A stretch of DNA of 64,000 bases, taken from a virus (Duplodnaviria > Caudoviricetes). The translations under genes and the position numbers were made by a program. Below are positions 25,046 through 62,606 of the stretch, piece after piece. Within the stretch, counting starts at the first letter, position 1; each line of letters opens with the position of its first letter. The notes beneath the pieces were generated by a model. It searched no databases and was not told where the DNA came from. It worked only from the letters and a program-made list of their open reading frames with translations. The stretch lies in IMG/VR virus record IMGVR_UViG_3300005841_000939, one strand, 5' to 3'.

Positions 25046-25069
25046 TATCATGCTTTGGAATATGTCAAG
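25046..25069 (-). promoter_or_regulatory. class II motif TTGACA-N10-CATGATA
   Basis: One of ~19 copies (see findings). Confidence 0.6.
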
Positions 25070-25194
25070 CGGTATCTTTAAGAGTTTGTCGCATATCATG
25101 ATACCGCATGAATGCAATTTAAAAGAAAGGTATTGACCTGCCTAGAAGAAGGTATATAGTCTTAATTGTCATCCACTCATACTCCTGGAATATC

Positions 25195-25326
25195 ATGAAC
25201 ATCACTGCCCTTGCTCTTGCTGACATTGCTTCAGACACTCATGAGGAGCAGATGGAAATCCGGGCGCGTGAGAAGCAAGCCGAAGAGGATCAGTACACCG
25301 CTGATATGGATTTGTATGATGAATAG
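25195..25326 (+). CDS. 43-aa acidic peptide
   Basis: Own promoter TTGACC-N16-TATAGT; below ORF-track cutoff. Confidence 0.6.
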   Translation: MNITALALADIASDTHEEQMEIRAREKQAEEDQYTADMDLYDE

Positions 25327-25420
25327 GAGAAATCCTTTCATTACGACCAGTTGAGCCTTTATCATGCTTTGAATGATTGCAAGTAATAAATGATTCGGAA
25401 AGATAACAGGCAAATAGTTC

Positions 25421-25447
25421 TTGACCTTACCTAAGTATTCCTATGAT
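25421..25447 (+). promoter_or_regulatory. class I promoter
   Basis: TTGACC-N15-TATGAT. Confidence 0.7.
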
Positions 25448-25469
25448 AAAGGTATACAAAGGTTATCCC

Positions 25470-25973
25470 ATGAATATCATGAACATCCGTAGCCAAGCAT
25501 CCCTGAAGAATACCATCGCGCATTTCCGACTGCGTGCTGCAAATTTCTTCAAGAATGAAGATGGTACTACGGATGTATACACCGTTGATAAGTGTGATTA
25601 CTGCAAGACTGTGTGTCGTGCTCCGAATGGTGTGAAGTTCATGAAAGAAACCAAGCAGGAATGGTTTGGTCAGATTGGCATGACCGAAGATAAGGTCATG
25701 TTGGATGAAATCAGTGCAAACGATGACGGTGATGCAGTTTGTGAAAATTGCTACAATGAGCCATCGGATGAGGTGACTGTTACGGTGGTGATTCCGTTCA
25801 AGGCCGATCACTATCAATTCACGTTCAAGACTGGAAAGGATGAGGATGCTCTGTGGATTCGTCGCGTGTATATCGGAAAGGATATGAACGCCATCCATAC
25901 GAAGGCAAAGGCACGTGCTCTGCGTGAGTATCCTGAGTCCTACGGTCATGTCACTCATTCCCCTCAGTGCTAA
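25470..25973 (+). CDS. Zn-finger hypothetical protein
   Basis: CDYC..VCENC. Confidence 0.7.
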   Translation: MNIMNIRSQASLKNTIAHFRLRAANFFKNEDGTTDVYTVDKCDYCKTVCRAPNGVKFMKETKQEWFGQIGMTEDKVMLDEISANDDGDAVCENCYNEPSDEVTVTVVIPFKADHYQFTFKTGKDEDALWIRRVYIGKDMNAIHTKAKARALREYPESYGHVTHSPQC

Positions 25974-25983
25974 AGGATAAGTC

Positions 25984-26256
25984 ATGCCTATTCCCGCTGG
26001 TATTGCTGAAGCATTCCCCTGGATGGTTGGGACGAAGGAAATACAAGCTTCGGCCTTCATCTGGAATGAATGGCAAGGGGACAATTCCTTTTTGGGTAAT
26101 TTTGATGAAACGGGGTGTGCTGTACGCAAGCCTGAAGGATGGAATGTCTTGGGATGGTGCGATGGTGGCAAACTGACTGTCCGACCACGTCCAGGCATGC
26201 TTGCTGTGATGTTCGAGGATGAATCAGGTGAACGGTTCTGGTGTCATATCGTATAA
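25984..26256 (+). CDS. hypothetical protein
   Basis: ORF with AAGGA. Confidence 0.65.
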   Translation: MPIPAGIAEAFPWMVGTKEIQASAFIWNEWQGDNSFLGNFDETGCAVRKPEGWNVLGWCDGGKLTVRPRPGMLAVMFEDESGERFWCHIV

Positions 26257-26311
26257 AAAAGGTATTGACCTTCCTTATTTATTCCTACAATAAAGGTATA
26301 AGAAGATAATT

Positions 26312-26647
26312 ATGTACAACCATTCAGATTTCCAAGGCAGTCCCAAAGAAGTTGCAGAGAAGCGAGAGCAGGCCTTGAGTGAAGGTCTGGTTCGTTTGGG
26401 TGCAAAGTATGGATTGACCTTTGAGTCAGTCCGACGGATGAACCCGAATGGAGATTTCAGTCTGACGCTGACCCGAATTCCGTATGGTCATCCCCAGCCT
26501 AAATATGGTGAAGAGTTCGCAAAGATCCTTTCAAAGTACGGAGTCTTCTGCGGTAATGTGATAACGCATCATATGCACGCCAATGATAATTGGTGCTATA
26601 TGAATCATTTTACAGTTGAAACGATGTTAGAGGAGTTGGGGATCTAA
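26312..26647 (+). CDS. hypothetical protein
   Basis: Own class I promoter. Confidence 0.7.
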   Translation: MYNHSDFQGSPKEVAEKREQALSEGLVRLGAKYGLTFESVRRMNPNGDFSLTLTRIPYGHPQPKYGEEFAKILSKYGVFCGNVITHHMHANDNWCYMNHFTVETMLEELGI

Positions 26648-26749
26648 TCCCTTTCTCTTTTATCTATCTGTGCTTGGTATCATGCTTTATAATTAGGTCA
26701 AGAACAAATAAAGGTATTGACTGAGGATATATTATTGTATGATAAAGGA

Positions 26750-26959
26750 ATGGCTGAAACTCCAATTATCCCTGAGAAGTCTTGCAAGAACTGCATTCAT
26801 TATCGGCCTTACCAAACCTGGCATATGAAACAGGCAGTCATGCAGTGTGAAGGTGATGCGGCCAATCATGTTGTTGCAGATGCTTCGGATGATACGGGAT
26901 TGCAATCATGGTTCAGACCACCCGAGACGTTTTGTTGCAGTGGTTGTGGTGAAAAATAA
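26750..26959 (+). CDS. small Cys-rich protein
   Basis: SCKNCIHY..FCCSGC; TTGACT-N15-TATGAT, ATG 6 nt later. Confidence 0.65.
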   Translation: MAETPIIPEKSCKNCIHYRPYQTWHMKQAVMQCEGDAANHVVADASDDTGLQSWFRPPETFCCSGCGEK

Positions 26960-27013
26960 GGTTTGCAATCATCTAAGACCTTATACAATAAAGTTATACA
27001 AAGGATACCAATT

Positions 27014-27334: not shown

Positions 27335-27337
27335 ACC

Positions 27338-27595: not shown

Positions 27596-27648
27596 AGGTG
27601 TTGACCTTAGTCCCGTTTTCCTACAATACAGTTATAAGGAAAACAATC

Positions 27649-27906: not shown

Positions 27907-27920
27907 TCCTCAGAGAAGAG

Positions 27921-27948
27921 AAGGTCCTATTACAAAATAGGACTTTTT
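27921..27948 (+). terminator. intrinsic terminator
   Basis: AGGTCCTAT..ATAGGACT + T-run. Confidence 0.7.
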
Positions 27949-27951
27949 CTT

Positions 27952-28140
27952 CTACTTCTTTATCCTAATATCATGCTTTTTATGGGGTGCAAGGGGAAGT
28001 TTTGGGCAATTTTGTGGGTACGGTCTTAGTTCATATTTGATGAATTTGTAATCATCAGTTATATGACTGACGATTGACCATCCGGTAACTCTTAGAATTG
28101 GGTTTAAGAGCACCTTTATGAAAGTTCTATGTCTTACCAT
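27952..28140 (-). CDS. hypothetical protein
   Basis: ORF in - operon. Confidence 0.5.
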   Translation of the reverse strand: MVRHRTFIKVLLNPILRVTGWSIVSHITDDYKFIKYELRPYPQNCPKLPLAPHKKHDIRIKK

Positions 28141-28141
28141 A

Positions 28142-29019: not shown

Positions 29020-29020
29020 A

Positions 29021-29097
29021 TGGTGGGAAGTCAGGGACTCGAACCCTGGACCTGGGGTTTATGAGACCCTTGCTCTAACCGACTGAGCTAACTTCCC
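29021..29097 (-). tRNA. tRNA with CAT anticodon (elongator Met or Ile2/lysidine)
   Basis: GGGAAGT/ACTTCCC acceptor, loop CTCATAA, TTCGAGT, encoded CCA. Confidence 0.9.
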
Positions 29098-29111: not shown

Positions 29112-29134
29112 TATCATGCTTTATGCATTGTCAA
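29112..29134 (-). promoter_or_regulatory. class II motif directly upstream of tRNA(CAT)
   Basis: TTGACA-N10-CATGATA ending ~14 nt before tRNA 5' end. Confidence 0.65.
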
Positions 29135-29780: not shown

Positions 29781-29894
29781 TCCAAAAGATCGGGTTCTTT
29801 ATTGACATGACCATCAAGCATGATATAGGAAACGACCAGGAATAATATATCAATAAAGGTCTTGCAATAAGGTAATTCCCTTTACGATCATGTT

Positions 29895-30218
29895 ATGAGC
29901 TACAATTTTGACACCAAGAGCATCCCCGCAATCTTCACTTCGGCCGAAGCTGAATCCATGGTGCAGGCCATGAATATGTGCGACATTCTGTCCGAAGTTA
30001 TTGACGTGCTGAAGGAGTCTCTGTATTGGTTCGGTGATCGTGAATTCACCGAGGAGTCAATTGAAGCCACTACCAAGCAGGCCTATCGCGTTGCTGCTCG
30101 CATCATCTATCGTTCGGATGTGCTGAAAAACCCTGGCCAAATCGAGCAAGTCCGTTTGCTGATGAATGGCGATGAAAAGACTACCAATCATTTCAGGGAT
30201 CTGATTAAGTTTTATTAA
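29895..30218 (+). CDS. hypothetical protein
   Basis: TTGCAA-N15-TACGAT at 29862, leaderless. Confidence 0.7.
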   Translation: MSYNFDTKSIPAIFTSAEAESMVQAMNMCDILSEVIDVLKESLYWFGDREFTEESIEATTKQAYRVAARIIYRSDVLKNPGQIEQVRLLMNGDEKTTNHFRDLIKFY

Positions 30219-30552
30219 ATCCCAATTTGCGCAATGATTCTTCCGTATACTGAAAGGTATACATTCCCCAAAATACCTTTGCATGAGGAGGAAATAGAAC
30301 AATTAGCGTCATAAAATTATCTTTCCGATCATGAACATGAAATAATGTCATTTCTTCATGTTCAAACATTTTGAAAAGAGTTTGCCAGGGATTCAAATCA
30401 AATTTATCAATTGCGATTGAATGCTTCAAAATCCATTCATCCTGGTTTTCTTTAGGAACTCTGACAGTTCCAAGCACAGATGCCTCTAATGCAGCTTTCA
30501 GTTCCTCATCAGTATAAGGCATTTGTACAAAAGGAGTGGTGTCGTCTGGCAT
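30205..30552 (-). CDS. hypothetical protein
   Basis: ORF directly behind class II motif 30562-30585. Confidence 0.65.
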   Translation of the reverse strand: MPDDTTPFVQMPYTDEELKAALEASVLGTVRVPKENQDEWILKHSIAIDKFDLNPWQTLFKMFEHEEMTLFHVHDRKDNFMTLIVLFPPHAKVFWGMYTFQYTEESLRKLGFNKT

Positions 30553-30590
30553 ACCTTCTTCTATCATGTTTTATGTTATGGTCAAGGTAC

Positions 30591-30938: not shown

Positions 30939-31736
30939 ATGAAAAGCATCACTCTGTTGTTAATATCATCAGTAATTGTTGCAAGTGAAAACAATGTGAT
31001 TGAGGTACCAACCTTGGCGAATGTGAATCATTCCTGGACTATTCAGGGTGAGGAGAATATGTTCGCTGGCGATGATTCGCGAACCTTTTCATTGACTTCG
31101 GCATATGAATGGGGAAATAATCGTATCCTTTTCAATTACGATATGTTAACACAGTTTGATAATTATAATTGGGAACGCATCAATTCGGGTCTTAACATTC
31201 GTCACAACACCGTTTTGCGTACGGATCGCTTGGATGGAATCTATTCATACAAGTTTGGTGATGATTCCTTATATCTTAGAGCTGGCACGGGTTTCAGACT
31301 CTACAGCAACCTCGGTGGTGGAGAACTGCAAACGTTCATCCATCGTGATTTGCTGCACGATTTCAACACCACAACTCCTAGTGCCCTGAGACATTATGAT
31401 GATAAGAATGATTTAGCGGCACTTGGCCAAATCATTTCGGCTGGCATCATTGGTGACCGTTTCGGTGGATTCTTCAATATGAATGCTGATGCATCAACTT
31501 CCGAAGAGTTGAACGCTAGCGGATTCGCTGGCATCCATATCAATAAAACCTTTTTTGTGGGTGGTTGCTTCAATCAGGAAATAAATCCAGTGAGCGAGAC
31601 TGCTAGGTCATACCACGGCACTCCCAGGGATGAGAACAACATCGGCATTCGTTTGGCATTCATGAGCAACCATTTTTATTCGGATATTTGCTACACTACT
31701 GGCATGGGCCATTTCCGAGTAGGCTTCACGTTTTAA
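30939..31736 (+). CDS. secreted outer-membrane beta-barrel-like protein (LpxR/DUF2219-like N-terminus)
   Basis: Signal-peptide-like N-terminus; ENMFAGDDSRTF; C-terminal FRVGFTF. Confidence 0.55.
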   Translation: MKSITLLLISSVIVASENNVIEVPTLANVNHSWTIQGEENMFAGDDSRTFSLTSAYEWGNNRILFNYDMLTQFDNYNWERINSGLNIRHNTVLRTDRLDGIYSYKFGDDSLYLRAGTGFRLYSNLGGGELQTFIHRDLLHDFNTTTPSALRHYDDKNDLAALGQIISAGIIGDRFGGFFNMNADASTSEELNASGFAGIHINKTFFVGGCFNQEINPVSETARSYHGTPRDENNIGIRLAFMSNHFYSDICYTTGMGHFRVGFTF

Positions 31737-31739
31737 GCG

Positions 31740-31809: not shown

Positions 31810-31929
31810 CCGTTAGTTATCATGCAATTTATATATTGCAAGTAATAGGTCTTGATATGCATGGTTTAAAAGAATGTTGATTTTAAGGGCCAGGGTGTAC
31901 AGTGCAAATATAGAAACAGGAGAGTAATC

Positions 31930-32984: not shown

Positions 32985-33114
32985 CAGGCTTCCTTTTTCT
33001 ACCTTCCTAGAACTAGGAAAATAATCCTTGCAAGTAAGGTCAGTTACTTACGATGTGAGTATCAAAGCAAGCAACCAAACCAATCAACCCACTCGCTTGC
33101 AAAGGATAAAAATC

Positions 33115-33456
33115 ATGGCTCACGGCATCAAGTACTGCAATAATGGTGTGCATAAGTTCATCGGCCTCGGCACTGTCCTGATCAAAAAGGATGTGCTCGC
33201 ATTCATGACGGAAGATGATCTTCCGAAGGGCTGGATGCACTACAAGGAGTTCGCTCGCAAGGCTGATATTTCGCTCCAGCGGATCTCCGAACTGGTCAAG
33301 ACGGGAGTCCTGGCGCATCGGCGACATCAGCGTGAAGGTCAGCGTGGTCGTCCGCTGCTGATGATCGCTGTAACCGAAGTCAAGCGGGTCCAGGAGTTCA
33401 AGGATCTGGTGAAGCGTGCTGCCGAACTTGGCTATAAGGCTGTTCCCAAGAAGTAA
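33115..33456 (+). CDS. HTH/excisionase-like DNA-binding protein
   Basis: EFARKADISLQRISELVKTG HTH-like; RGRP motif; promoter and terminator. Confidence 0.6.
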   Translation: MAHGIKYCNNGVHKFIGLGTVLIKKDVLAFMTEDDLPKGWMHYKEFARKADISLQRISELVKTGVLAHRRHQREGQRGRPLLMIAVTEVKRVQEFKDLVKRAAELGYKAVPKK

Positions 33457-33587
33457 GCAGAAAGATCCCAGGCAACCATGCTTGGGATTTTTTATTGCCT
33501 AATATATCTGCGACTATCATGCTTAGGTAATGTGTCAAATATAAAAATGAGGCTTGACACCATCCTAATACCCTGTAAAGTGCAATT

Positions 33588-34138: not shown

Positions 34139-34170
34139 AAAAAGGACAAGTAATGAGCTTGTCCTTTTCT
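34139..34170. terminator. bidirectional intrinsic terminator
   Basis: AAAAAGGACAAG..CTTGTCCTTTT. Confidence 0.75.
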
Positions 34171-34227
34171 TACCTTAATTGATTGTGTTTGCTATCATGC
34201 TTTGATGATAGTCAAATGAAAAAACTA

Positions 34228-36638: not shown

Positions 36639-36645
36639 AAACGTT

Positions 36646-36872
36646 GATACCCTGGGGGGCTTTTAAGGCCTCACCCCAGGGTATCCCCTTTATTGGCGGA
36701 CCAAGTTGCGATCTTGGTCGGATAGTGATCAAACTTCCTTGCCAACAGGATTGATTTGTATACCGCTCTCCATCGAAGCGGGGCATTTAAGCTAGTTGTA
36801 ATCAACGAGTGATCAAACACGGGGGATTGGTTACCTCCATCGTCCTATTACAAGCAGGACTGCTTTGCCCTT
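36646..36872 (-). ncRNA. candidate small structured RNA behind class II motif
   Basis: Class II motif 36902-36879; repeat GTTTGATCACT x2; hairpins; 12-bp terminal stem. Confidence 0.4.
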
Positions 36873-36964
36873 ACGTTGTATCATGTCATTAGATACTGTC
36901 AAGGTTATATTTAATAAGGTATTTGAGGTATTGACTTGCCTTATATGTGATGTAGTATGACGGT

Positions 36965-39000: not shown

Positions 39001-39144
39001 AAGAAGTCCTCATGGGGAAATTATACGTCTGAATTTTTGTTGCATTGTCTAGAAGCATGATATAGGATCCTGACAGTCCTGTTATCTTCTTGACTCAAAG
39101 ATGTCTAGGGTATATGAATAGTATTAAGCCCTAAAAGCATCCAT

Positions 39145-39384
39145 ATGTTTACTACTGCAACACATTATTACATTGTCTTCAAAGCAAGTAATGGAGAAGT
39201 CCTTTTCTTGCATGAGGATGATGATGGTTACAAGTTGCGTTTAAAGGCTGATAATGATGATTCAATTTGCTGTTTTGAATTAGGATCGGAAGCACATTAC
39301 GAAATGGGTCGGGCTGAATTGACCTTTCCGAAAATAAGGCTTGAAATCCTTCCTGAGGCGTGTACAGTGTGCGTAAGAAAGTGA
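39145..39384 (+). CDS. hypothetical protein
   Basis: ORF. Confidence 0.65.
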   Translation: MFTTATHYYIVFKASNGEVLFLHEDDDGYKLRLKADNDDSICCFELGSEAHYEMGRAELTFPKIRLEILPEACTVCVRK

Positions 39385-39953: not shown

Positions 39954-40182
39954 ACCAGAAAAGATGGATCGTAATTGATCCATCTTTTTTTACCTTTATA
40001 CTCGGACCATGAACTATTGGGATTTTGTCAAAGAGTTTTTTACCTCAGAAGCTGGGCAATGGTTCAGTATGTGCCTTTTCCTTTCTATCATGCTTATTCT
40101 TTCAATCAAGGGGTATCATTGGATTAGGGATCATATCTAAAATAAGGTTTGACTTAGGAATTTGGGCCTTATACTCAATATT

Positions 40183-40908: not shown

Positions 40909-41187
40909 ATGGACATCGGAATTATCTGCCCAAGAACGCATGTTGCCTATTATCGTGGATGGCTTGCTGAACCATCAAAGCACAAAGCCATTAGCTTGAA
41001 ATATTTCGGAAAGGCACCAGTGCATCCTAACATCAAGCCTGAAGCTCAGGGCGTTTGGATGGAAAGTGAAATCTGGATCCTTGGTGTGTTCAATGTGAAA
41101 GAAGCAGAACGGCAACTTGATCTCCTGATAAATTTATGGTCAGGAAAGAATCCTGCTGATTGGCAATACAGAAGGACGAAGGACTAG
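40909..41187 (+). CDS. hypothetical protein
   Basis: ORF. Confidence 0.65.
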   Translation: MDIGIICPRTHVAYYRGWLAEPSKHKAISLKYFGKAPVHPNIKPEAQGVWMESEIWILGVFNVKEAERQLDLLINLWSGKNPADWQYRRTKD

Positions 41188-41299
41188 AAATAGTCCTTTT
41201 TTTATTTGAACACCTAATCCCCTTTATCATGCTTTAAAGAATATCAAGGTATATTCCTATAAGGATTTTAAATGCCTTGACTTTATTAATTAAAGGTAT

Positions 41300-43110: not shown

Positions 43111-43374
43111 ATGAGTGAGTCCTTTTCGGTTCGTCTCAATCTGAACTATGAAAATGTTGGCGATTCCGCTAACAACTTAGTCAGTGATACCAAGGACGTT
43201 AATGTGAATGCACTCCCTTCCCAAGGAGTGACTATTTACATGGAAACGAAAACTCATCAGATTGAGGGAGTTGTTACTCGCCCTCCCCATTTGATGATCA
43301 TCGGCCCGTTTACTGGCACGTACCTCATTCATGTTCAGGTCACCAGTTACAAAGCCAGGCAGACCAAGGCCTAA
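43111..43374 (+). CDS. hypothetical protein
   Basis: Packed ORF. Confidence 0.6.
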   Translation: MSESFSVRLNLNYENVGDSANNLVSDTKDVNVNALPSQGVTIYMETKTHQIEGVVTRPPHLMIIGPFTGTYLIHVQVTSYKARQTKA

Positions 43375-43544
43375 GCAGCGTCAAACGATTCCTCAATCCG
43401 TTCAATCTGAGATAAGGACAAGTGGATTCCCCATTTGTCCTTTATCTTTTTTTGCAGTTCCACACCATTATTGTCAAGGATGAGGGTTTCAAGCTCCTTC
43501 TGGCTGATTGAATGCTTTTCGGAGATGCGTTGCCAGTAAATCAT
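43371..43544 (-). CDS. small hypothetical protein
   Basis: Behind class II variant TTGACA-N11-CATATTA (43604-43581). Confidence 0.45.
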   Translation of the reverse strand: MIYWQRISEKHSISQKELETLILDNNGVELQKKIKDKWGIHLSLSQIERIEESFDAA

Positions 43545-43653
43545 AAGGGTAGCCTGAAAGGGGTGGTGTTCCCAATGTGCTAATATGCTTATTGCATCTG
43601 TCAACAACCAAAAAATAGTTTGTGTCCTTGAATATAAGGTGTAGTATGCATAT

Positions 43654-43876: not shown

Positions 43877-44080
43877 ATGCTGCTCATGTCATCCAATGCG
43901 TTCCTCCCTCATCACCTTTCAGTCCTGAATGAACGTGGTGAAATCAACCGAGTTCAAAAAGGAGTGTTCATCAATGTCACCAAGGTTAATAAATCGTTGG
44001 TGCAAGTGAATTTCTCAAAGATTCAGGATGCTGAATTCATCGTGCAGCCCTCTCAGGAGGTGGTGGCTGGTGGGGTCTAA
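43877..44080 (+). CDS. hypothetical protein
   Basis: ORF. Confidence 0.55.
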   Translation: MLLMSSNAFLPHHLSVLNERGEINRVQKGVFINVTKVNKSLVQVNFSKIQDAEFIVQPSQEVVAGGV

Positions 44081-44235
44081 CCCTGCCTTCACCTCGCGGC
44101 TGCCGTTAGTTATCATGCTTGAGGGTAGATGCAAGGATGAAGGTGAGAAGGAATGTCTACGGAAAACATCCTTGACTCCTAGAAAGAGTGTGCATGATGC
44201 GAGGTATCACCCATACCCATACAAGGGAAACGACC

Positions 44236-45021
44236 ATGACTGCTACTCTCATCGCCCACGCCGGATCGTATGTCGCCACCAAGGACCAGGTCTACGGCAG
44301 CAAGCCGGTGATGGATGCGTCCAAGACCTACGATCCCATCGGCCACGGACGCTTCGTGGACCTCATCGAGGAGGGCCTGGAGCGCAATAAGTGGAACGTC
44401 GCCAAGCGTTCCTACGCCCTCGGGAAGGAAGGCAATGGTCAGCTCTTCGGAGCGTATGACCTGGTCGCATCGGGCAACGCTGGCCACACGCTGTGTCTCG
44501 GCTTCCGCAACAGCACGGACAAGTCGCTGCAGGCTGGTCTGGCGTGCGGATCGCGTGTCTTCGTGTGCGATAATCTCGCATTCTCCTCGGACATCGTCAT
44601 CCAGACCAAGCATCGCGCCCACGTCCAGGAGAATCTGCCCAACCTGATCGACAAGGGCCTGGAAAAGTTCCTGATCGATGGCGCCGAACAGGAGAAGGAG
44701 TTCGCTTTCTGGAAGCAATTCCGGATCGATGTCGCTTCGGCCAGCAATCTCATCTGTCAGGCTGCTGAGGAGAAGGTGATCCATTCCGAACGTCTCATCA
44801 TCCCCGTGCGTGCTGAATTCATCAAGCCCCGTTTCAACGAATTCAATGACGGTGGGACGGCCTGGAGCCTGTACAACGCTTTCACCACGATTCATCGCCA
44901 TGTCCGTACTGATGTCGAGCCGGTGAACCAGTTCGGTGCGTTGAAGCTGACGCATGCGTTCATGCGCAAGGTGGCCCCGATGCCCAAGGAAACCACCCCG
45001 GCGGATGCGCTGGCCAACTGA
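44236..45021 (+). CDS. DUF932/DUF945-like protein
   Basis: LCLGFRNSTDKS..GSRVFVCDNLAF..KHR..WSLYNAFT; terminator 45031-45064. Confidence 0.75.
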   Translation: MTATLIAHAGSYVATKDQVYGSKPVMDASKTYDPIGHGRFVDLIEEGLERNKWNVAKRSYALGKEGNGQLFGAYDLVASGNAGHTLCLGFRNSTDKSLQAGLACGSRVFVCDNLAFSSDIVIQTKHRAHVQENLPNLIDKGLEKFLIDGAEQEKEFAFWKQFRIDVASASNLICQAAEEKVIHSERLIIPVRAEFIKPRFNEFNDGGTAWSLYNAFTTIHRHVRTDVEPVNQFGALKLTHAFMRKVAPMPKETTPADALAN

Positions 45022-45314
45022 GGCCAAACGAAAGATCCCTGGACTAACCACCCAGGGATTTTTTACCTGCAAAATTCCTGCGTTTTTTCAAGAATTTATG
45101 GCGGCTATCATGTTTTCTCTAGTTGTCAAGGAATCCTTTAAAAGTGGTTGCCTTATATAAGAAGAAAGGGGTCGTTCCGAACTGATTAGGAAGACCTACG
45201 AAATATTCCTTGACCTTGAAATAGAGGCATTAGATTGAACACATAACCCAAGCATGGGAAATGTAGCAAAGCTACCAAACCCCATGCGCAACTTCCCAAG
45301 AAAGGGAATGCATC

Positions 45315-45944
45315 ATGCGTAAGCTCATCTCTGTCCTCGTCGGTTCGGACACCAAGTACATCGGTGATCGCAACGGCTCCACCCTCGTCGCTCGCATGTC
45401 GGATGCCCATCGCTTCAACAGCGGTTCGGCCGAGCAGCGCGCCAAGGACTTCAAGTCCAGCGACTTCATCAAGCAGGCCGGTGGCACCACCCTGGTGGTG
45501 ATCGATGACGAGGGCAAGGCCAAGTCGGCCAGCGCCAAGGACGCGAAGGCCCCCAAGGCGAAGCGTGGTCGCCCGGCCAAGGCCACGACCGAGAAGGTCA
45601 AGGGCAAGCCGGGTCGCAAGCCCAAGGCCGAGAAGGTCGAGAAGGTGGCCAGCGGCAAGCGTGGTCGCCCGGCTGGTGCGGTCAGCGCCCTGATCGGCAA
45701 GCGCCAGATGGGCATGCTGATCGAGGACCTGAAGGCGGGGCTGCTCCCCTCGCTGCTGGAAGCGATCAAGGCCATCGTGATCCCCGCCCCGGCGGTGCCC
45801 GCGGTCGCCACCCCGTCGGCTCGTCGCGCCCCCGCCAAGGAAAAGGCCCAGGTCGCGGCCCCCGCGACGAATGCCCAGGGTGACCAGGCGAACGCCAGCG
45901 CCCAGGTCCAGACCCCGGCGACCAGCGGTACCCCGGCGGCCTGA
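45315..45944 (+). CDS. histone H1-like Lys/Ala-rich protein with AT-hook-like motifs
   Basis: KRGRPAK, KPGRKPK, KRGRPAG; very GC-rich codons; terminator 45961-46004. Confidence 0.7.
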   Translation: MRKLISVLVGSDTKYIGDRNGSTLVARMSDAHRFNSGSAEQRAKDFKSSDFIKQAGGTTLVVIDDEGKAKSASAKDAKAPKAKRGRPAKATTEKVKGKPGRKPKAEKVEKVASGKRGRPAGAVSALIGKRQMGMLIEDLKAGLLPSLLEAIKAIVIPAPAVPAVATPSARRAPAKEKAQVAAPATNAQGDQANASAQVQTPATSGTPAA

Positions 45945-46042
45945 TACAGCGAACTCGGCAAAGAGAAGCCCTGGGGTGTAAAAACCCTGGGGCTTCTCTT
46001 TTTTCGTTGACATTTGACCTTACCTGTTAAACTGGCGGTAGC

Positions 46043-46495: not shown

Positions 46496-46594
46496 TTTTT
46501 TAATTTCCTCCAATGTCATCTATCATGCTTATATGAAATGTCCATAGGAATTTGAACATAAAAATATTGTTGACATAGGTTTATATTCTCCACA

Positions 46595-47353
46595 ATGGAC
46601 GTATCACCACATAGGAACGCAATCATGGGCGATGAAGCTGATGCACTTTGGGAAATCTACACTGATGTCGGTCCCGACGTTACGTGCAAATTCTGTGGCA
46701 AGGGAAACCTGCTGTGGGATCAAGCCTCCAACGGGAAGTTTTTCCTGACAGATGAAGACGGCACCATGCATACGTGCTTGCGCAAGCGTCTTCCGAAGTT
46801 CCGGCCCAGCATGATCCAACCCCCTCCTGGCCAAGCTGAACACTCCCAGGAAACTCTTGACATCCTCAATAGCCCACAAGTCAGCAAGCTCCTGCGCTAC
46901 AAAGGTCAAGCTGTCAAGCTCAAAAAGATCAAGGAGTGCAAGCTGCTGGCGGCCCATCGCGGTAAGGTGATCGTCACCAAGGAAAGCGAATACGTCACCC
47001 GCATCGGCATCAGCTACAACAACATGCAGGACGTTATTCGCAAACGGCAAACTGGTGAATTGCCTGCGACTCCCCAGCCGATGGCATGGGGTGAATGGGT
47101 TCCTGGTCTGGAAAACTACGTCAAGCGCCATACCAAGGATGGTGTTGTCCACCTGTACTTCCGCTGCTATACTGTCAAGGGAGACTTGAAGCACAGCAAG
47201 GCCCGGTACTACGTGAATGGTAAGGAAGTTACCAAGGAAGAAGCGCAGGTGTACTGCACCAAGTTCGCTGATGAATTCACTGACAACCAGGACTGTTTTG
47301 ACATCCACATCAAGGACATGGTTGAAGTCAACGGCGAAAACATCCAGGCCTGA
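46595..47353 (+). CDS. Zn-ribbon plus conserved phage domain
   Basis: TCKFCG..HTC. Confidence 0.7.
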   Translation: MDVSPHRNAIMGDEADALWEIYTDVGPDVTCKFCGKGNLLWDQASNGKFFLTDEDGTMHTCLRKRLPKFRPSMIQPPPGQAEHSQETLDILNSPQVSKLLRYKGQAVKLKKIKECKLLAAHRGKVIVTKESEYVTRIGISYNNMQDVIRKRQTGELPATPQPMAWGEWVPGLENYVKRHTKDGVVHLYFRCYTVKGDLKHSKARYYVNGKEVTKEEAQVYCTKFADEFTDNQDCFDIHIKDMVEVNGENIQA

Positions 47354-48048: not shown

Positions 48049-48303
48049 ATGATAATAATGAAAATAATTAAATACATTGAACAGATGCCCGTCAAAGGAA
48101 AAGAACATATTCCTGTCAAACCAGATTTAGGCATTGGAACTATTGTTGAATACATGGGAACTGTTTGCACTGTGCAACATAGAAGGCAAACAGAATTAAA
48201 TTCAGGTTGGTTATATACCCTTTTGACACCTGATGGAAAATTTTTACCTGTCTATGGTACAGAAGCTATCATGCATTATAATAAGGTCAATAATAAAAAA
48301 TAG
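48049..48303 (+). CDS. hypothetical protein
   Basis: ORF. Confidence 0.55.
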   Translation: MIIMKIIKYIEQMPVKGKEHIPVKPDLGIGTIVEYMGTVCTVQHRRQTELNSGWLYTLLTPDGKFLPVYGTEAIMHYNKVNNKK

Positions 48304-50631: not shown

Positions 50632-50665
50632 AAAAGGCGTTGATTTACTTCACTTGTATGATAAA

Positions 50666-50752
50666 CGGCTTGTGGCGGAATTGGCAGACGCGGGGGACTT
50701 AAAATCCCCTCCCAGCAATGGGGTGCGGGTTCGAGTCCCGCCGGGCCGACCA
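50666..50752 (+). tRNA. tRNA-Leu(TAA)
   Basis: Class II cloverleaf, loop CTTAAAA, CCA. Confidence 0.93.
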
Positions 50753-53674: not shown

Positions 53675-53810
53675 GGAAATAAAGGGAGCTAATAGAGAAG
53701 TTCGCCAAGAAATGATCCGTAAGCACGGTGATTCTTGGAAAGTTCCTGCTCCCAAAGTCTTCAGAGATAAGAAGCGTGAAGCTAGCCGACGCTGGAATTC
53801 TGACGATTAA
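53661..53810 (+). CDS. 49-aa basic peptide
   Basis: MKKTKEIKGANREVRQEM..; below ORF-track cutoff. Confidence 0.45.
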   Translation: MKKTKEIKGANREVRQEMIRKHGDSWKVPAPKVFRDKKREASRRWNSDD

Positions 53811-53970
53811 TCCAGAGTTCCTTGGCTGTCTCAGCCATAAACTTTGTTCGAGTAAGCTTTTCTAATGCATCTGTGAAGTGTTCACAGTCAAAGCTTTCCT
53901 CCATGATGCCAGTAATCATTTCCTCTGATAGGCCAGTTTCGGATGATAGCTGGGTTAAATGAGAACTCAT
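53782..53970 (-). CDS. small hypothetical protein
   Basis: TTGACA-N15-TAGAAT and GGAG upstream. Confidence 0.6.
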   Translation of the reverse strand: MSSHLTQLSSETGLSEEMITGIMEESFDCEHFTDALEKLTRTKFMAETAKELWINRQNSSVG

Positions 53971-54142
53971 CAGGTCTCCATTCTAAGAACGCTTGGCATG
54001 TGTCAACAATACCTTCTTAACATGCATTTAAGCCTAGTCAAGAATTACCTTAGTATCTGATTAGACCTAAAAATGTTTATTGCTTTTTCACCTTAAGTCT
54101 TTACAGTCATCAACATACCAATCATACAGAAAGCGAATAATC

Positions 54143-56488
54143 ATGCTTGTAGCAACCAAGTCGGAACAAGTCGGTCGCCATGGGGAAATGAAAGTTTCCA
54201 CTCTGACCATCGATAATCCTGGCATGATGCTTGCGCACATGTTTGATACGATCTATACCAACAAGGCAAAAATCGTTGTTCAGGAGATCGCTTGCAATTG
54301 TCGCGATGCTCACAGAGAAGTAGGAAAGGCTGATGTTCCGATTACCATCAAGCTGCCGAACAAGCTTGACACTTCTTTGCAGTTCATTGATGAGGGTCCA
54401 GGCCTTTCTCCCCAACGAATCGATGCGATATACAACAGTGTCGGTGCATCTACCAAGCGCGGCAGCAACGATCAAACTGGCGGGTTTGGTATCGGATCAA
54501 AAACTCCTTGGTCCCTGACCAACATGTTCCTGGTCAAGACAACTGCCTGGGAAGGAGAAGGTGAAAATCGCGAATTGGTATATCGCGAATACACCATGCT
54601 CCGTGAAGGATTATTTTTCACTTGCAATCAAACTGGTGATCCTGAAGTGAAGGACCCTGCTCTGAATAAGAGCGGCACCATTATTGAAATGCAACTGGAG
54701 GAAAAGGAATGGCAGAATATTGAATCAGAAATTCAGAAAATCTTTATCTCATGGGATCCCAAGCCAAATATCCTTGGTTATTCTAGCGGTGAATGGGTTT
54801 GGAAAACCAGACTTGATCCGCTGTTTGAGGGAAAAGGTTGGAAAGTTTACAATGGTCAGGCTTATTACAATCACACGCATGTCTTCATGGACAATATTCC
54901 ATATCCGTTGGATTGGAGCGCAATGGAAACTGCGTTTGTCAGCTTGATGACTGATGTTTCAATTCCTGGAACTGCCACGGAAGAAATGAATGACATCGTC
55001 ATCAATAAGAACAATGATCCGATGACAAGTGCAAGAATTCGCACGTTGTGGCATCAGGCAGCAATCCTGCAAAATGTAACTTGCGGATTGTTCTTCAAGA
55101 CGGGTGAACTGGATCCCGCATTGAATCGTGAATCGTTGCAGTATACCCCTCAGACTGTTCGGCGCATTGTGGCTCGCATGTTGGCTGCAACTCAAATCAT
55201 CCTCACCACATATCAGAAAAAGGTTGAAGCTGCACCAACGTATGTTGCTGCATTGACCATGTGGAAGGAGTTGGCCAGCAACGTTATCAGAAATCTTATT
55301 TCAGGTTCGCGTGCCAACTGGCGGGGACTGCCTCTGAATACTGCCATGACGATTCACTTCCCTGAATCAGTCATTGTAAACAAAGTGATGCTCCGCAGTA
55401 ATTATAGCCGTCGCGCCAAGTTTTCAATGCGGCAAGAGGAAAGCATCAAACTGGAGGGAATTGATCAAAAGAAGCAAATTTTCGTCAACACTGGCTACAA
55501 CGAACGCAATGTACGCCATTACATGGAGCAAAATAACTTTGGTGGAAATAGCTATGACAGGGAATGCTTATATTTCCTGAGCTTCAAGCCAGGGTTCTCT
55601 GATCGTACTCTTCCACTCCCTGACATTGATGCTAAGGTCATGGAAGAAAGGTTCTTCAAGTCTGATCTATGGGTCGGTTTGGAACATGGTGGCAACAGTG
55701 ATCAGTTCCCGAAAAGGCCGATTATCAGAAATTCAGCAACGGGAAGTCGCGGACCGAAGAAGGATCCCCTCGCTGCCAATATATGGAATTCTGGTTTGAA
55801 GAAATTCCATGCATCTGATGTGATGCTGTCAGTTGACGAGGAAGATGAATCTGAGGATGCCGATCAAAAGGACATCGTCTATGTCTTGACTTTCCGAAAG
55901 GACTGCAACGAATTCAATGGCGACCAATTGAATACGTTGGAACATGCATTGAACATTTCCATCTATGGCGTTTCGGAACGCTTGAAGCATCGCATCCCTG
56001 ATCATTGGGTATCACTTGGGGAAAAGGCACGTGAATGGTTGTCTCAACAGCCTTTGGATTCAACTATCGCCGAATACATTCGCAAGCGCAATATCAATTC
56101 GGTGATGATCAATGCTTGCAAGGATATTTCTGCATCATTTGCAAGCATCATGGCAGATCCGGATTTGGAACAACTTGTCACTGCACCCGATTGGATTGAA
56201 ATGGCCCGTCTCTTCAAGACGACATTCAATTCAGAAACTCAATTGGATACGACTCCTGAATCCAATATCCTCAAGAAAATCAAGGACGTCAACAAAGTCC
56301 TGAGCAATCCACTGACGATTCCCGATATGCCTGAAGCAGAAGAAACCTCTCCTGAAGCAGAAGCTTTGAAAGCTCTGGTTGAAAAGTATTACTTGGTGAG
56401 GCAGGCTGCTGCAAGCTATACGCTTGATGCAACAGTGCTCAATCGCATCATTCCAGACCTGGCTATCTTCATTAATGCCAAAGGATAA
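54143..56488 (+). CDS. rIIA: rIIA-like protein
   Basis: IYTNK..VQEIACNCRDAH, D.GPGL, STK..SN.QTGGFGIGSK.P (GHKL-type N-terminus); adjacent to rIIB. Confidence 0.85.
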   Translation: MLVATKSEQVGRHGEMKVSTLTIDNPGMMLAHMFDTIYTNKAKIVVQEIACNCRDAHREVGKADVPITIKLPNKLDTSLQFIDEGPGLSPQRIDAIYNSVGASTKRGSNDQTGGFGIGSKTPWSLTNMFLVKTTAWEGEGENRELVYREYTMLREGLFFTCNQTGDPEVKDPALNKSGTIIEMQLEEKEWQNIESEIQKIFISWDPKPNILGYSSGEWVWKTRLDPLFEGKGWKVYNGQAYYNHTHVFMDNIPYPLDWSAMETAFVSLMTDVSIPGTATEEMNDIVINKNNDPMTSARIRTLWHQAAILQNVTCGLFFKTGELDPALNRESLQYTPQTVRRIVARMLAATQIILTTYQKKVEAAPTYVAALTMWKELASNVIRNLISGSRANWRGLPLNTAMTIHFPESVIVNKVMLRSNYSRRAKFSMRQEESIKLEGIDQKKQIFVNTGYNERNVRHYMEQNNFGGNSYDRECLYFLSFKPGFSDRTLPLPDIDAKVMEERFFKSDLWVGLEHGGNSDQFPKRPIIRNSATGSRGPKKDPLAANIWNSGLKKFHASDVMLSVDEEDESEDADQKDIVYVLTFRKDCNEFNGDQLNTLEHALNISIYGVSERLKHRIPDHWVSLGEKAREWLSQQPLDSTIAEYIRKRNINSVMINACKDISASFASIMADPDLEQLVTAPDWIEMARLFKTTFNSETQLDTTPESNILKKIKDVNKVLSNPLTIPDMPEAEETSPEAEALKALVEKYYLVRQAAASYTLDATVLNRIIPDLAIFINAKG

Positions 56489-56555: not shown

Positions 56556-57488
56556 ATGTCAAAGAACAAGCGCAAAATCATCCTCACTGAGAACCAGGTG
56601 GCACTGACCATCAAGGGGCAGACGAGAACCATCAACAAGAAACATCCTGCATTCAAAAAGGTGCTGGACCTCATTCACGTCGGTGGCAGTGATGAAGACC
56701 TGTTGAAGGCCATCGAACCCGTCAAAGCCATCAACACCAGCAAGAAGGCTGCGAATTGGGGCATCAAGGTGGTGGATGGTTCCATCAAAATGCAGGAAGA
56801 GGTGCTGCCCGCTGATATTGCGGATACCATTCTCGAATTCAAAGCTGCAAACGAACCGTTCGAACCGCTGGTGAAGTTCTACGAGAACTGCAAGCTGAAT
56901 CCTGATGTGCGTGTCAAGGAAGGTCTCTTCCGGTTCTTGAAGGCTCATCGCTTCCCTCTGACGGAAGATGGTTGCTTCATCGGCTATCGCAAAGTCGCAA
57001 ACGACTTCAAGGACTTCTATACTGGCAAGCTCGACTTCTCCCCCGGCCAGACTGTGACCTTGGATCGCAGTCTTTGCGATTCGGACAATAACAATACGTG
57101 CTCCCGTGGTTTGCACGTCGCCAACTTCCGCTATGCGAAGGAAGTCTATCATCCTGGCTCCGGCAAGATGATCAACGTCAAGATCAATCCCCGTGATGTG
57201 GTCGCATTCCCAACGGACTATCATTTCGAGAAAATGCGCGTGTGCGCAATGTACGTCATCGGCGAGAATGGTACCAGCGAAGCTGATGCCCAAGAATATC
57301 AGGAGCTGTTCAAGCAGCAGAATCCTGATTGGAAAAAGAATGACAAGGACGTTGACGAAGCTGAGGAAGAAGACATCGAAACTGGTGCTGTCAGTGTCAA
57401 GGGCAATCCCCAGGATGCTGTCGAAATTCCGGTCTGGATGTCACAGAAGCGTGACGCTCGCGGTCGCTTCGGCAAGGTCAAGAAGTAA
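56556..57488 (+). CDS. rIIB: rIIB-like protein
   Basis: LFRFL..LTEDGCFIGYRKV..CSRGLHVA..KINPRDVVAFP.D..KMRVC. Confidence 0.9.
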   Translation: MSKNKRKIILTENQVALTIKGQTRTINKKHPAFKKVLDLIHVGGSDEDLLKAIEPVKAINTSKKAANWGIKVVDGSIKMQEEVLPADIADTILEFKAANEPFEPLVKFYENCKLNPDVRVKEGLFRFLKAHRFPLTEDGCFIGYRKVANDFKDFYTGKLDFSPGQTVTLDRSLCDSDNNNTCSRGLHVANFRYAKEVYHPGSGKMINVKINPRDVVAFPTDYHFEKMRVCAMYVIGENGTSEADAQEYQELFKQQNPDWKKNDKDVDEAEEEDIETGAVSVKGNPQDAVEIPVWMSQKRDARGRFGKVKK

Positions 57489-59803: not shown

Positions 59804-59894
59804 ATATCCCAACAACTTAAGGTCTTGACTGGACCCTTGGTGATGCTATATTTAGCAAAGCCAAGGGTCTAACTTTTTAAGGTCTGCCGCCATC

Positions 59895-60485: not shown

Positions 60486-60495
60486 AGGACACATC

Positions 60496-60735
60496 ATGGC
60501 CACCAATATCTTCATGTGCAAAAACGGAGCGTACTGCTGCGTGGTTGCTGCCAGAACTGAGGGTTCTGCACTCCGTCAGGCTCGAAACATCATGGATGCT
60601 CATCATGTTCAGGTCTGTCCAGCAACCGTTGAGGATGTTAATCATGTGATTGGCATGGGAAGTCATATTCACAACATGACCGAAAAACAGGTCAATAAAT
60701 GGCTCAAAAAGAATGAGGTGGAACATGCAGGATGA
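60496..60735 (+). CDS. hypothetical protein
   Basis: AAGGA RBS. Confidence 0.65.
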   Translation: MATNIFMCKNGAYCCVVAARTEGSALRQARNIMDAHHVQVCPATVEDVNHVIGMGSHIHNMTEKQVNKWLKKNEVEHAG

Positions 60736-60973
60736 AACTGGCATCCTCATCAAACCAACTGATGTGCCAGCCGATGCAAAGGAACAAGACCTTCGCAAAA
60801 TTGAATCCCTCATTGAGGCTGATTTAGAAAAGAAATACGGAAAGGGAATCTGGAATACACTTGAATCCCTCCAACTCATCGAAGAAGCCTTGAAGAAGAT
60901 TCGTATCCAGAAGGATCAGAAGATCATGAAAGAACTTAACAAACAAGGAATATCGTTTATCAAACCCCGATAA
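60713..60973 (+). CDS. hypothetical protein
   Basis: ORF. Confidence 0.55.
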   Translation: MRWNMQDETGILIKPTDVPADAKEQDLRKIESLIEADLEKKYGKGIWNTLESLQLIEEALKKIRIQKDQKIMKELNKQGISFIKPR

Positions 60974-61056
60974 ACAGATAGAATGGAGTCATATGCCGTC
61001 AGAAACCTCTGTAGTGAATGACTCTAGCAATAATCAACCCTTGACCCTATGTCCTT

Positions 61057-61332
61057 GTGATGTATTCTGGTGGGAGCAAGAGGGATGGGACCATGAAGCA
61101 GATAAAGCTGATCAAGAGCCCCTCTCCAGAATCTACTTGCACGGATAATCCCCGCAAAGAAGAATGGCAGGCTTATAGAGCCATACCATCCGATGATAGA
61201 GTTGAATACCCCAAGGTCTATAATCCTCTCACTTGGACATCCAGAATCTGGAACCAAGTCCTCATCATCGTTATCATCCTGTCAGCTTTCTTCTATCTCT
61301 GGTGCTTCAACACCATTCCCCAAGGATTCTGA
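61057..61332 (+). CDS. membrane protein
   Basis: C-terminal TM; class I promoter. Confidence 0.6.
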   Translation: MMYSGGSKRDGTMKQIKLIKSPSPESTCTDNPRKEEWQAYRAIPSDDRVEYPKVYNPLTWTSRIWNQVLIIVIILSAFFYLWCFNTIPQGF

Positions 61333-61334
61333 TC

Positions 61335-61616
61335 ATGTGGAAAGAAATCAAAGAGAAGGTTGATAGCTCCTGCTACTTCTTCGCAATCGTTGGGGCAACC
61401 CTGACCTTTTGCGTATGCTTCTTTTTGGCACTCAAGTCTGGTGCGCTATTCAGCATCATCGGATTGGGCTTGGTAATTCTCTCACCCATCATCGGCGCGT
61501 TCATTGGTGGCATGATCTTTGGGGTGTTCTTGGCATTCCCCCTCATTGTGGTTTGGGAAGTGCTGATCCTCCCCATCGTTCGCATCCTCAATTCTCACAA
61601 CAGCCGTCATCACTGA
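61335..61616 (+). CDS. membrane protein
   Basis: Three hydrophobic segments. Confidence 0.65.
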   Translation: MWKEIKEKVDSSCYFFAIVGATLTFCVCFFLALKSGALFSIIGLGLVILSPIIGAFIGGMIFGVFLAFPLIVVWEVLILPIVRILNSHNSRHH

Positions 61617-61618
61617 TC

Positions 61619-61933
61619 ATGCCCTGGCCAGGTAAATGTCCCTATTGCAATGAGGTCATGACTACTCGGCGTGGACCGTCAGAAGTCACTAATGACCATA
61701 TCATCCCTTTAAACAAAGGTGGTGATACGAACGATGCCAATACCATCTACGTGTGCCAAAAGTGCAACAACGTCAAAAGCAACCATCTCCCATGCGATCC
61801 TGAATGGGGCAATGATCCTAGAAGAGTCATCATCACTAATCGTGTATTGAAAATTATCTTTGATAGGAAATTGGCGTACCCTTGGGAAAAACACGTCAAA
61901 GACCTTAAAATAGATAAACAAGATGCCTCATAA
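61619..61933 (+). CDS. HNH endonuclease
   Basis: CPYC..TNDHIIPLNKGG..NTIYVCQKCN. Confidence 0.85.
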   Translation: MPWPGKCPYCNEVMTTRRGPSEVTNDHIIPLNKGGDTNDANTIYVCQKCNNVKSNHLPCDPEWGNDPRRVIITNRVLKIIFDRKLAYPWEKHVKDLKIDKQDAS

Positions 61934-61951
61934 TAGAGAAAAATTTGGTCC

Positions 61952-62194
61952 TTGCGAATATGCACTGATCATTGTATTCTCTCTCGCAAGCCACTTATTT
62001 TACAGTATCTTAGAATACCTTTTCACGAAATTCTGGTAATGCCCACGTCCTCCATCAGCGAACGCCTCAAACTCCACACTTCATTAGCCATGGAGCTTGT
62101 AGACGTAATTGATCAACTCAAACAAGATCCAGCTAATGAAGAGTTGAAAGCTCGGCGTCTTGAACTCCAAGCCCGCATTGATGAGTCAGCTTAA
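61952..62194 (+). CDS. small hypothetical protein (start probably ~62039)
   Basis: C-terminal helical ORF. Confidence 0.45.
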   Translation: MRICTDHCILSRKPLILQYLRIPFHEILVMPTSSISERLKLHTSLAMELVDVIDQLKQDPANEELKARRLELQARIDESA

Positions 62195-62356
62195 AATATC
62201 CTTTCGGAATTGAAAGAATGAAGATTTTAAATTATTGATTTGCTCTGCATAAATTTTTAGATGATCATATCTACTATTGCGATGATATAAGAATCCAACG
62301 AAGGCTACATTTTGTCCCTCTACATTACTTAAATCTGGTTCAAAAATATATTTCAT
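62186..62356 (-). CDS. 56-aa hypothetical protein
   Basis: Fills gap in - operon. Confidence 0.45.
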   Translation of the reverse strand: MKYIFEPDLSNVEGQNVAFVGFLYHRNSRYDHLKIYAEQINNLKSSFFQFRKDILS

Positions 62357-62563
62357 TCAATATCCTGACAGCATGTTGAATCGTTTTCGGTCATCTAAGA
62401 AATCCCGAACAATATCTGATATAGATTTTGGTTCAATCAATGGATGATCATACCTATTGTTTTGTTGTTCTAATATAAAAGGAAACATAACATCAATACC
62501 ATATATTGATTCAAAATCTTGTATGGCTTCTTGAGTGTATTTTATTTTCATGATTCTATTCAT
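62357..62563 (-). CDS. hypothetical protein
   Basis: ORF. Confidence 0.6.
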   Translation of the reverse strand: MNRIMKIKYTQEAIQDFESIYGIDVMFPFILEQQNNRYDHPLIEPKSISDIVRDFLDDRKRFNMLSGY

Positions 62564-62606
62564 AGGATTCTAAGTTTCTTATTGACTTCCGTCTCAAGCA
62601 TGATAG

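Follow-up and report, generated by a model that had tools for sequence, protein, structure and literature searches.

A TTG-box-N10/11-CATGATA element as a candidate second promoter class in a clade of uncultured giant rIIA/rIIB phages

The stretch of DNA analysed here, 64,000 nucleotides of the IMG/VR virus record IMGVR_UViG_3300005841_000939 (Duplodnaviria; Caudoviricetes) and hereafter called the window, is part of a metagenomic contig of 379,560 bp (ENA ERZ27252182, k141_6275370). It encodes rIIA (54080-56488), rIIB (56556-57488) and four tRNAs, and between 24 and 62.6 kb its guanine-plus-cytosine (GC) content is about 44%, against about 33% in the flanks, with a local island of 58% at 44-46 kb (44001-46000). 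This GC-richer block holds small genes, mainly on the plus strand, laid out as cassettes of small ORFans in which most gaps between genes consist of a terminator plus one of the phage's ordinary early promoters (class I), the arrangement that marks the boundaries of the so-called PeSL cassettes. The subject of this work is another element of the same block, a TTG box followed 10 or 11 nucleotides later by the heptamer CATGATA, which we named class II. An initial annotation of the window had listed about 19 copies of it, most of them pointing back at the preceding cassette. Sequence identical to the window was present in two or three other rhizosphere data sets, and the six other contigs containing the region were 100% identical and thus uninformative for conservation; 50,697 GenBank phage records yielded no near match to the window and no near-identical phage.

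Class I promoters were characterized in the interval 24500-62700 as TTG(A/C)N-spacer-TAnnnT. Their spacer peaks at 15 (34 cases) and 16 (29 cases) over a background of about 12 cases at every other spacing, including 17, where there is no peak. The roughly 60 members follow the consensus aaataaGGTATTGAC(c/t)-N15/16-TAyrrT, exemplified by aaaGGTATTGACT-N15-TATGAT at 26717-26743 (+), and an ATG is often found 6-7 nt beyond the -10, giving leaderless mRNAs. Such features are uncommon for a sigma-70-type host and could give a clue to which host this phage infects.

The class II element occurs in the window far more often than expected by chance. TTGNNN-N11-CATGATA (that is, TTG-N14-CATGATA) had 16 matches, where 100 dinucleotide shuffles of the window gave 0.55 +/- 0.70, and TTGNNN-N10-CATGATA (TTG-N13-CATGATA) had 8, where shuffling gave 0.42 +/- 0.73; none of the shuffles attained the observed count for either form. 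Together these are 24 matches against about one expected, and the motif is non-random and, in agreement with the initial description, intergenic; all spacers other than 10 or 11 remained at background level, marking a sharp optimum. Four intragenic matches with poor upstream boxes and without AAG (14995 on the plus strand; 18014, 52031 and 58548 on the minus strand) were discarded as probable chance occurrences, and the inclusion of a copy at 46521, whose upstream box reads TGGACA, resulted in a set of 21 good sites. An exact copy was found at each position listed initially, so that the previously reported copies are all real, but two exact ones had been overlooked (48267-48290 and 62616-62639). 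Near-variants with one or two mismatches added about three plausible sites: CATGTTA (54018-54041) and CATATTA (43581-43604), both of which the initial annotation had already noticed, and TATGATA (50640-50663). Eighteen of the good sites are on the minus strand and three on the plus strand, all of them within 25046-62639, i.e. inside the 44%-GC block, each end of which carries a pair of copies (25046-25117 and 62582-62639).

A logo of the good sites gave the consensus ccTTGAC(a/c/t)-N6/7-(a)AAG-CATGATA-(g), with a purine 4-5 nt past the core. The core heptamer is almost invariant, and the upstream box, a TTGACA-like hexamer, is of the TTGAC type in 12 cases, TTGCA in 7, TTGAT in 2 and TGGAC in 1. 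This is the same unusual TTGAC/TTGCA spectrum as that of the class I -35, but placed 5 bp nearer. Since the spacer and the flanks are devoid of information, the copies are not recent duplicates of one another.

The placement of the element is as regular as its sequence. Fourteen of the 21 copies are aimed into the 3' end of the preceding gene, usually 16-26 nt past its terminator, and about 13 stand back-to-back with a forward class I promoter (TTGAC-N15/16-TAnnnT), in line with the orientation initially reported. Orientation is set by the neighbouring gene and not by absolute strand, as indicated by the plus-strand copy at the right edge of the block (62582-62605), which runs antisense to a minus-strand gene (62607-63119) at its 3' end. 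The remaining seven copies (25046, 25094, 29112, 29802, 30562, 39040 and 62616) are sense-oriented. At the left edge, TTGACA-N10-CATGATA (25046-25068, -) is followed in tandem by a class I promoter of the minus strand, TTGACT-N15-TATGAT (25013-24987), and TTGCAT-N11-CATGATA (25094-25117, -), which has the palindromic core TATCATGATA, stands 15 bp from a class I promoter (25133) with which it is back-to-back. Further into the block, TTGCAA-N10-CATGATA (25360-25382, -) is antisense to the small plus-strand gene 25195-25326; TTGACC-N11-CATGATA (26678-26701, -) is flanked on one side by the terminator of gene 26312-26647 and on the other, 15 bp away, by a class I promoter (26717); a stand-alone copy (27969-27992, -) is located between convergent gene ends and faces a symmetric terminator (27914-27953); and TTGCAA-N11-CATGATA (31818-31841, -) is antisense to gene 30939-31736. 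The copy at 33515-33538 (-) follows the gene 33028-33456 terminator by 26 nt and has a class I promoter (33554) 15 bp away, and that at 34193-34215 (-) faces a bidirectional terminator (34139-34170). Minus-strand copies are also present at 36879-36902, at 40086-40109 (TTGATT-N11-CATGATA), at 41225-41247 (TTGATA-N10-CATGATA), 26 nt past the terminator 41178-41199, at 44111-44134 (TTGCAT-N11-CATGATA), at 45106-45129 (TTGACA-N11-CATGATA), at 46521-46544, the one with the TGGACA box, and at 48267-48290, with a class I promoter (48307) at a distance of 16 bp.

Several sense-oriented copies precede a plausible product. The copy at 29112-29134 (-) lies 14 nt upstream of tRNA-Met (CAT anticodon; 29021-29097, -), the sole minus-strand tRNA, which is flanked by plus-strand genes and has no other promoter-like site. 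The copy at 30562-30585 (-) comes right after the terminator of a minus-strand unit (30879-30591) and right before ORF (open reading frame) 30205-30567 (-), and that at 62616-62639 (-) lies 53 nt upstream of ORF 62357-62563 (-) and face-to-face with the 62582 copy, with 10 bp between the cores. For the tRNA, for these two ORFs and, in the form of the variant TTGACA-N11-CATATTA (43581-43604, -), for an uncalled ORF (43371-43544, -) situated in an apparently gene-free gap, class II is the only promoter-like element upstream, which strengthens the initial suggestion that the motif can plausibly act as a promoter. The product of the uncalled ORF would have 57 amino acids, with only a faint winged-helix-turn-helix match (E 0.16). 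On the plus strand, the copy at 29802-29825 precedes gene 29895-30218, whose class I promoter lies 36 nt downstream of the copy, and that at 39040-39062 is ahead of gene 39145-39384; here a TTGACT box starts 27 nt downstream of the core, a by-eye reading, as the N15/16-TAnnnT scan gave no class I match at this site. The variant TTGACT-N11-CATGTTA (54018-54041, -) stands 11 nt before a class I promoter of the minus strand, in tandem with it, and ahead of a gene of 62 amino acids (53782-53970). The third variant, TTGATT-N11-TATGATA (50640-50663, +), ends 2-3 nt before a tRNA-Leu (window 50640-50666).

With respect to the backward-facing copies, for which the initial annotation had suggested putative roles as an antisense layer, a source of tiny hairpin RNAs or a polymerase trap, a terminator usable in the antisense direction, with a hairpin and a T-run on that strand, was clear at few sites, such as 34139-34170 and 39964-39990; the scan for hairpins downstream of class II was crude and returned strong hairpins at a subset only. 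The copy at 36879 faces an ORF-free, structured stretch of about 240 nt (36640-36872, 233 nt) that lies between it and a gene terminator and folds on both strands with z scores of -3.4 and -3.5, that is, equally well on either strand, so that folding does not indicate which strand is transcribed. At the left edge of the block, the sequence 24720-24990 (-), downstream of three minus-strand promoters in tandem (the class II sites 25094 and 25046 and the class I promoter 25013), is G/C-rich and ORF-poor, and is possibly a small RNA gene.

The two boxes, with a play of only 1 bp between them and composed of a -35-type box and a -10-type hexamer, are best read as a promoter, and the question is then which bases constitute the -10. 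Two readings had been put forward in the initial annotation: either CATGAT is a -10 at an unusually short spacing, recognized by a non-standard sigma factor or co-activator, or the element is an extended -10 promoter with class I spacing, in which TAnnnn begins at the last two bases of CATGATA. A-11 and T-7 are the bases essential for the opening of the -10 region. When CATGAT is taken as the -10, both are present in every copy, in every variant and in the CACGATA lineage described below, and the first reading is the better fit. In the TAnnnn register T occupies -7 in 1 of 19 copies, below base frequency, and the second reading is disfavoured. GATAnn was rejected as a third register, its last base being T in only 4 of the 21 copies, and TATCAT as a plus-strand -10 was also rejected, as it has no -35 upstream and the tRNA and ORF contexts point in the opposite direction.

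The second register is the basis of an alternative in which class II would be a host sigma-70 promoter, or a polymerase-parking site, of the usual 15-16 bp spacing (TTGACA, extended -10 TG, TAnnnn) that binds the holoenzyme and opens poorly. A spacer of N10/11 to CATGATA is equivalent to N15/16 to TA, which matches the class I peak, and in the window copies TG stands at the proper extended -10 position. Nevertheless, in addition to the missing -7 T, this proposal leaves the invariant C, A and AAG unexplained; the TG is replaced by CG in all six L112/L113 copies, with the rest of the motif kept; and a site without a specific reader should not be restricted to one lineage. We consider this alternative improbable.

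Evidence on conservation came from the closest rIIA homologues among 5.8 billion proteins, which are encoded at loci that we refer to as L112/L113 (37% identity), L114-L116 (38%) and L117 (29%). In answer to the proposal of the initial annotation that related phages be examined, the motif was found in all three groups. L114-L116 contain 6 class II copies in 15.7 kb, and L117 contains 4 by the strict pattern, most of them with the palindromic core TATCATGATA; one L117 site (5881-5919) is fully symmetric, TTGACC-N10-TATCATGATA-N9-GTCAA, its plus-strand reading having a 12-nt spacer. L112/L113 have 6 copies, all of them TTGAC-N11-CACGATA, so that CG replaces TG and the remainder of the motif is kept. 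The A at position 2 and the T at position 6 are retained in all core variants, including this one; because L112/L113 lose the TG and keep these two bases, CATGAT is favoured as the -10 and the extended -10 is disfavoured. In the relatives, nearly all copies run opposite to the direction of rIIA, being in sense before minus-strand genes and in antisense inside plus-strand arrays. On the other hand, 80 more distant rIIA loci (about 850 kb) had motif counts at background, none with TTGAC, and pattern scans of IMG/VR stretches (about 1.9 Mb) for the AAAGCATGATA and TATCATGATA versions gave single chance-level matches only; a scan of IMG/VR for rIIA found nothing.

One site could be followed across lineages. 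A minus-strand gene of 62-70 amino acids, divergent upstream of rIIA and of unknown function, is homologous in three lineages (34-39% identity; window 53782-53970, L112 5393-5605, L114 5119-5331) and is preceded in each by class II and then class I; the window variant at 54018-54041 thus has class II orthologues in both L112 and L114, with boxes retained and spacers diverged. A similar picture emerged from a strain variant about 2-3% divergent (run X4), in which the substitutions near four covered sites spared both boxes and fell in the spacer or beyond the motif: at 33515-33538 they were at 33528 and 33530, both in the spacer, and the motif at 40086-40109 was intact, with four substitutions close by. 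Class II is thus under selection and restricted to this clade, with a core that evolves by lineage. The window gene 46595-47353 was considered as a homologue of GP88 and rejected, and therefore the site found upstream of GP88 in L112, L114 and L117 has no orthologue in the window.

These data also bear on whether the element acts in transcription at all. It could instead be a signal that works on the DNA itself, in the shuffling of cassettes or in strand-specific processing, for example as a PeSL-like recombination hotspot or the site of a nicking or homing enzyme. The copies do stand at cassette boundaries, between terminators and promoters amid small ORFans, in near-uniform orientation; PeSLs are conserved promoter-terminator composites at such boundaries (PMC4122927; PMC2839356), and an HNH endonuclease is encoded in the window. 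However, boxes of 5 and 7 bp offer too little conserved sequence for homologous recombination, a 10/11 play together with a -35-like box is what transcription signals typically show, the orientation follows the neighbouring gene, as the 62582 copy indicates, and sites are kept at orthologous positions and not just at indel boundaries. A signal of this kind is, in our opinion, quite unlikely, slightly more so than the polymerase-parking site.

We propose, with a probability that we put at about 0.5, that class II is a second promoter class in a clade of uncultured giant rIIA/rIIB phages. CAYGAT would be the -10, bearing A-11 and T-7 and followed by an invariant A at -6, and transcription would probably begin at the purine 4-5 nt further on. 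Situated at about -29 to -24, the TTGAC/TTGCA box would be read by the same sigma region-4-type module as the class I -35, although from 10-11 bp upstream of the -10 instead of 15-17 bp. Region 4 of an unmodified sigma-70 holoenzyme cannot span that distance, and a phage-specified factor would therefore be needed, which might be an alternative sigma, a split sigma or a co-activator of the sigma-appropriation type such as MotA/AsiA; the lineage-specific change from CATGATA to CACGATA fits a phage-encoded reader. About one third of the copies would serve genes that run the same way as the element (tRNA-Met, several small ORFs of the minus strand and, as an extra promoter, genes that also have class I), and the majority, just past the terminator of an early cassette, would fire back into that cassette. 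Once the factor is made, this could yield antisense RNA to the 3' ends of early mRNAs, or cause collision with, or occlusion of, the adjacent class I promoter. It is in this sense that we infer RNA starts at class II sites, a dedicated factor, its timing and an antisense shut-off.

Several observations weigh against a second promoter class. None of the RNA runs checked contained this DNA. The search for a sigma factor or activator that the initial annotation had recommended was negative: sigma, MotA and AsiA were absent among the matches listed (the best 25 Pfam/PHROG families, with 5 and 12 further outside the list) for the 76 window ORFs, and for six further small ORFs the Pfam/PHROG matches listed included no sigma, MotA or AsiA and no significant helix-turn-helix family. 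Most copies have no obvious downstream product. Furthermore, C at -12 and the invariance of seven core bases are atypical of a sigma-70 -10 and suit a sequence-specific binding protein equally well, and the face-to-face overlapping copies (62582-62639 and the symmetric L117 site) are awkward for promoters. Finally, the gaps between the class II box and the -35 of the divergent class I promoter cluster at 14-16, 25-29, 35-39 and 48-54 bp (Rayleigh p ~0.001, n=20), and such helical phasing is what would be expected of an activator or repressor site facing the polymerase.

These points lead to the most serious of the alternatives, namely that class II is the asymmetric site of a phage-encoded two-domain regulator, an activator, repressor or insulator of the adjacent class I promoter, comparable to the marbox of MarA/SoxS in its fixed orientation and helical phase, with no RNA start at the element itself. 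The strict invariance of the core, the class I promoter adjoining about 13 of the 21 copies, the -35 to -35 gaps in steps of about 10.5 bp and the palindromic core of the relatives with its symmetric L117 site would all be accounted for, and a core that co-varies by lineage is what would be expected of a phage protein and its site. Against a regulator, a class I promoter is lacking in the vicinity of several copies (34193 and the stand-alone 27969, 30562 and 62582/62616), some transcription units, namely tRNA-Met and a few ORFs of the minus strand, would be promoterless, the element occurs in both orientations relative to class I and at differing distances, and the window ORF scans listed no significant helix-turn-helix or regulator family. 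The upstream box, moreover, mirrors the class I -35 spectrum, which points to sigma region 4 and not to a separate protein. On balance we regard a regulator site as having perhaps half the likelihood of the second promoter class.

Among known systems, the nearest geometry is that of the T4 MotA/AsiA middle promoters, (a/t)3TGCTTtA-N11-13-TAtaAT, with GCTT at -30 to -27, which are read by an AsiA-remodelled sigma-70 together with MotA (PMC1524935). Class II would, like them, be a phage-specific second class; in both the box is about 10-13 bp from the -10, near -30 and not -35, and class II is likewise often found upstream of genes that also have an early promoter (54018-54041, L112 and L114). 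In contrast to the middle promoters, the class II box is TTGAC/TTGCA and not the TGCTT of a MotA box, and lies 1-3 bp closer; its -10 is an invariant CAYGATA, with C at -12, and not TAnnnT, A-11 and T-7 being kept at 10-11 bp from the box; and no motA or asiA homologue appeared among the matches listed for the 76 window ORFs. Neither is it a feature of T4 middle promoters that most copies face back into the preceding gene. A literature search on CATGATA promoters returned nothing relevant.

Other promoter types are more distant. With canonical and extended -10 sigma-70 promoters class II shares a TTGACA-like hexamer and a -10-like hexamer bearing A-11 and T-7. Its spacer, though, is 10-11 bp and not 17 +/- 1 (15-16 bp in class I): the hexamer at N10/11 is CATGAT and not the TAnnnT that sigma-70 promoters have 16-18 bp from the -35 (here 15-16 bp), and in the alternative register the TGn plus TAnnnT of an extended -10 is incomplete, with TG in the window copies, no T at -7, and CG in all six L112 copies. 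The T4-type late promoter has TATAAATA at the -10 and no upstream box, unlike the CATGATA core with its box, and the sigma-54 pattern (GG at -24 and GC at -12, exactly 10 bp apart; TGGCAC-N5-TTGCA) is not seen in the class II logo. TATAAATA itself was absent from the whole window on both strands, where shuffles gave 3.4 +/- 1.9; this is weak alone and would match the avoidance of late promoters in a non-late region. By its sequence, class II lacks what defines a sigma-70, extended -10, MotA-box, late or sigma-54 promoter and is most like a middle promoter.

The backward orientation recalls the lambda oop RNA, a short antisense RNA whose promoter, an ordinary sigma-70 promoter at a single locus, lies at the 3' end of cII. 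In both cases a promoter, or promoter-like element, at the 3' end of an early gene is aimed back into it, in some class II copies through a bidirectional terminator (34139-34170). Class II differs in being an array of about 14 sites of a non-canonical, predicted promoter. As for the setting, the PeSL/PmSL cassettes of the hyperplastic regions of T4-type phages are small ORFans bounded by a stem-loop terminator and a conserved promoter (PMC4122927; PMC2839356), and the window offers the same context, a plastic region of a large rIIA/rIIB phage with a stem-loop and an early promoter between ORFans. The PeSLs described have one forward promoter with an N17 spacer, unlike the 15-16 bp found here, and class II is an additional, oppositely oriented and differently built element between stem-loop and promoter that has not been described for PeSLs (PMC4122927). 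What is new here would, at even odds, be a second class of promoter that is specific to the phage and put to unusual, mostly antisense, use.

Some further observations concern the gene calls around the element. The minus-strand genes that the public gene caller places at 44179-46013 are probably wrong, the family matches in this region being on overlapping plus-strand ORFs, 44188-45021 (weak DUF932) and 45315-45944 (AT hook), and some minus-strand products are doubtful because they rest on those calls. The ATG of the core was considered as a leaderless start codon and rejected: the ORFs that begin there mostly encode 2-46 amino acids, as in the background, although three gene calls do begin at this ATG. 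Calls starting at the ATG within CATGATA were those of window ORF 30205-30567 and of two consecutive minus-strand genes of L114 (12418-12441 and ~12755-12790), and may reflect an artefact of the gene caller or a very short leader. The TATGATA variant at 50640 is too near to serve as the -10 of tRNA-Leu; the equivalent tRNA of L114 is also preceded by TGATAAAcggc.

In practical terms, TTGAC-N10/11-CAYGATA provides a simple marker to find and subdivide this group of uncultured giant soil phages. Middle mode is the least conserved and least understood stage of transcription in T4-related phages, some of which encode AsiA without a known MotA partner, and it is poorly conserved among them (PMC1524935). 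A clade-specific promoter class with a -35-like box half a turn too near the -10 would be a new way of re-aiming bacterial RNA polymerase, and the systematic backward placement of the element would constitute a rare, organised antisense shut-off programme in a phage. A more ambitious and rather tentative proposal is that a transcription-specificity system peculiar to the clade (either a phage sigma or a split sigma with region-2-like and region-4-like proteins, or else a new appropriation pair) reads a box at -26 together with CAYGATA and is used as a programmed, array-wide antisense switch, which would silence about 14 early cassettes together and at the same time switch on a tRNA and a few genes of the minus strand. 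If this were true, the change from CATGATA to CACGATA in the sister lineage would represent co-evolution of the factor and its promoters.

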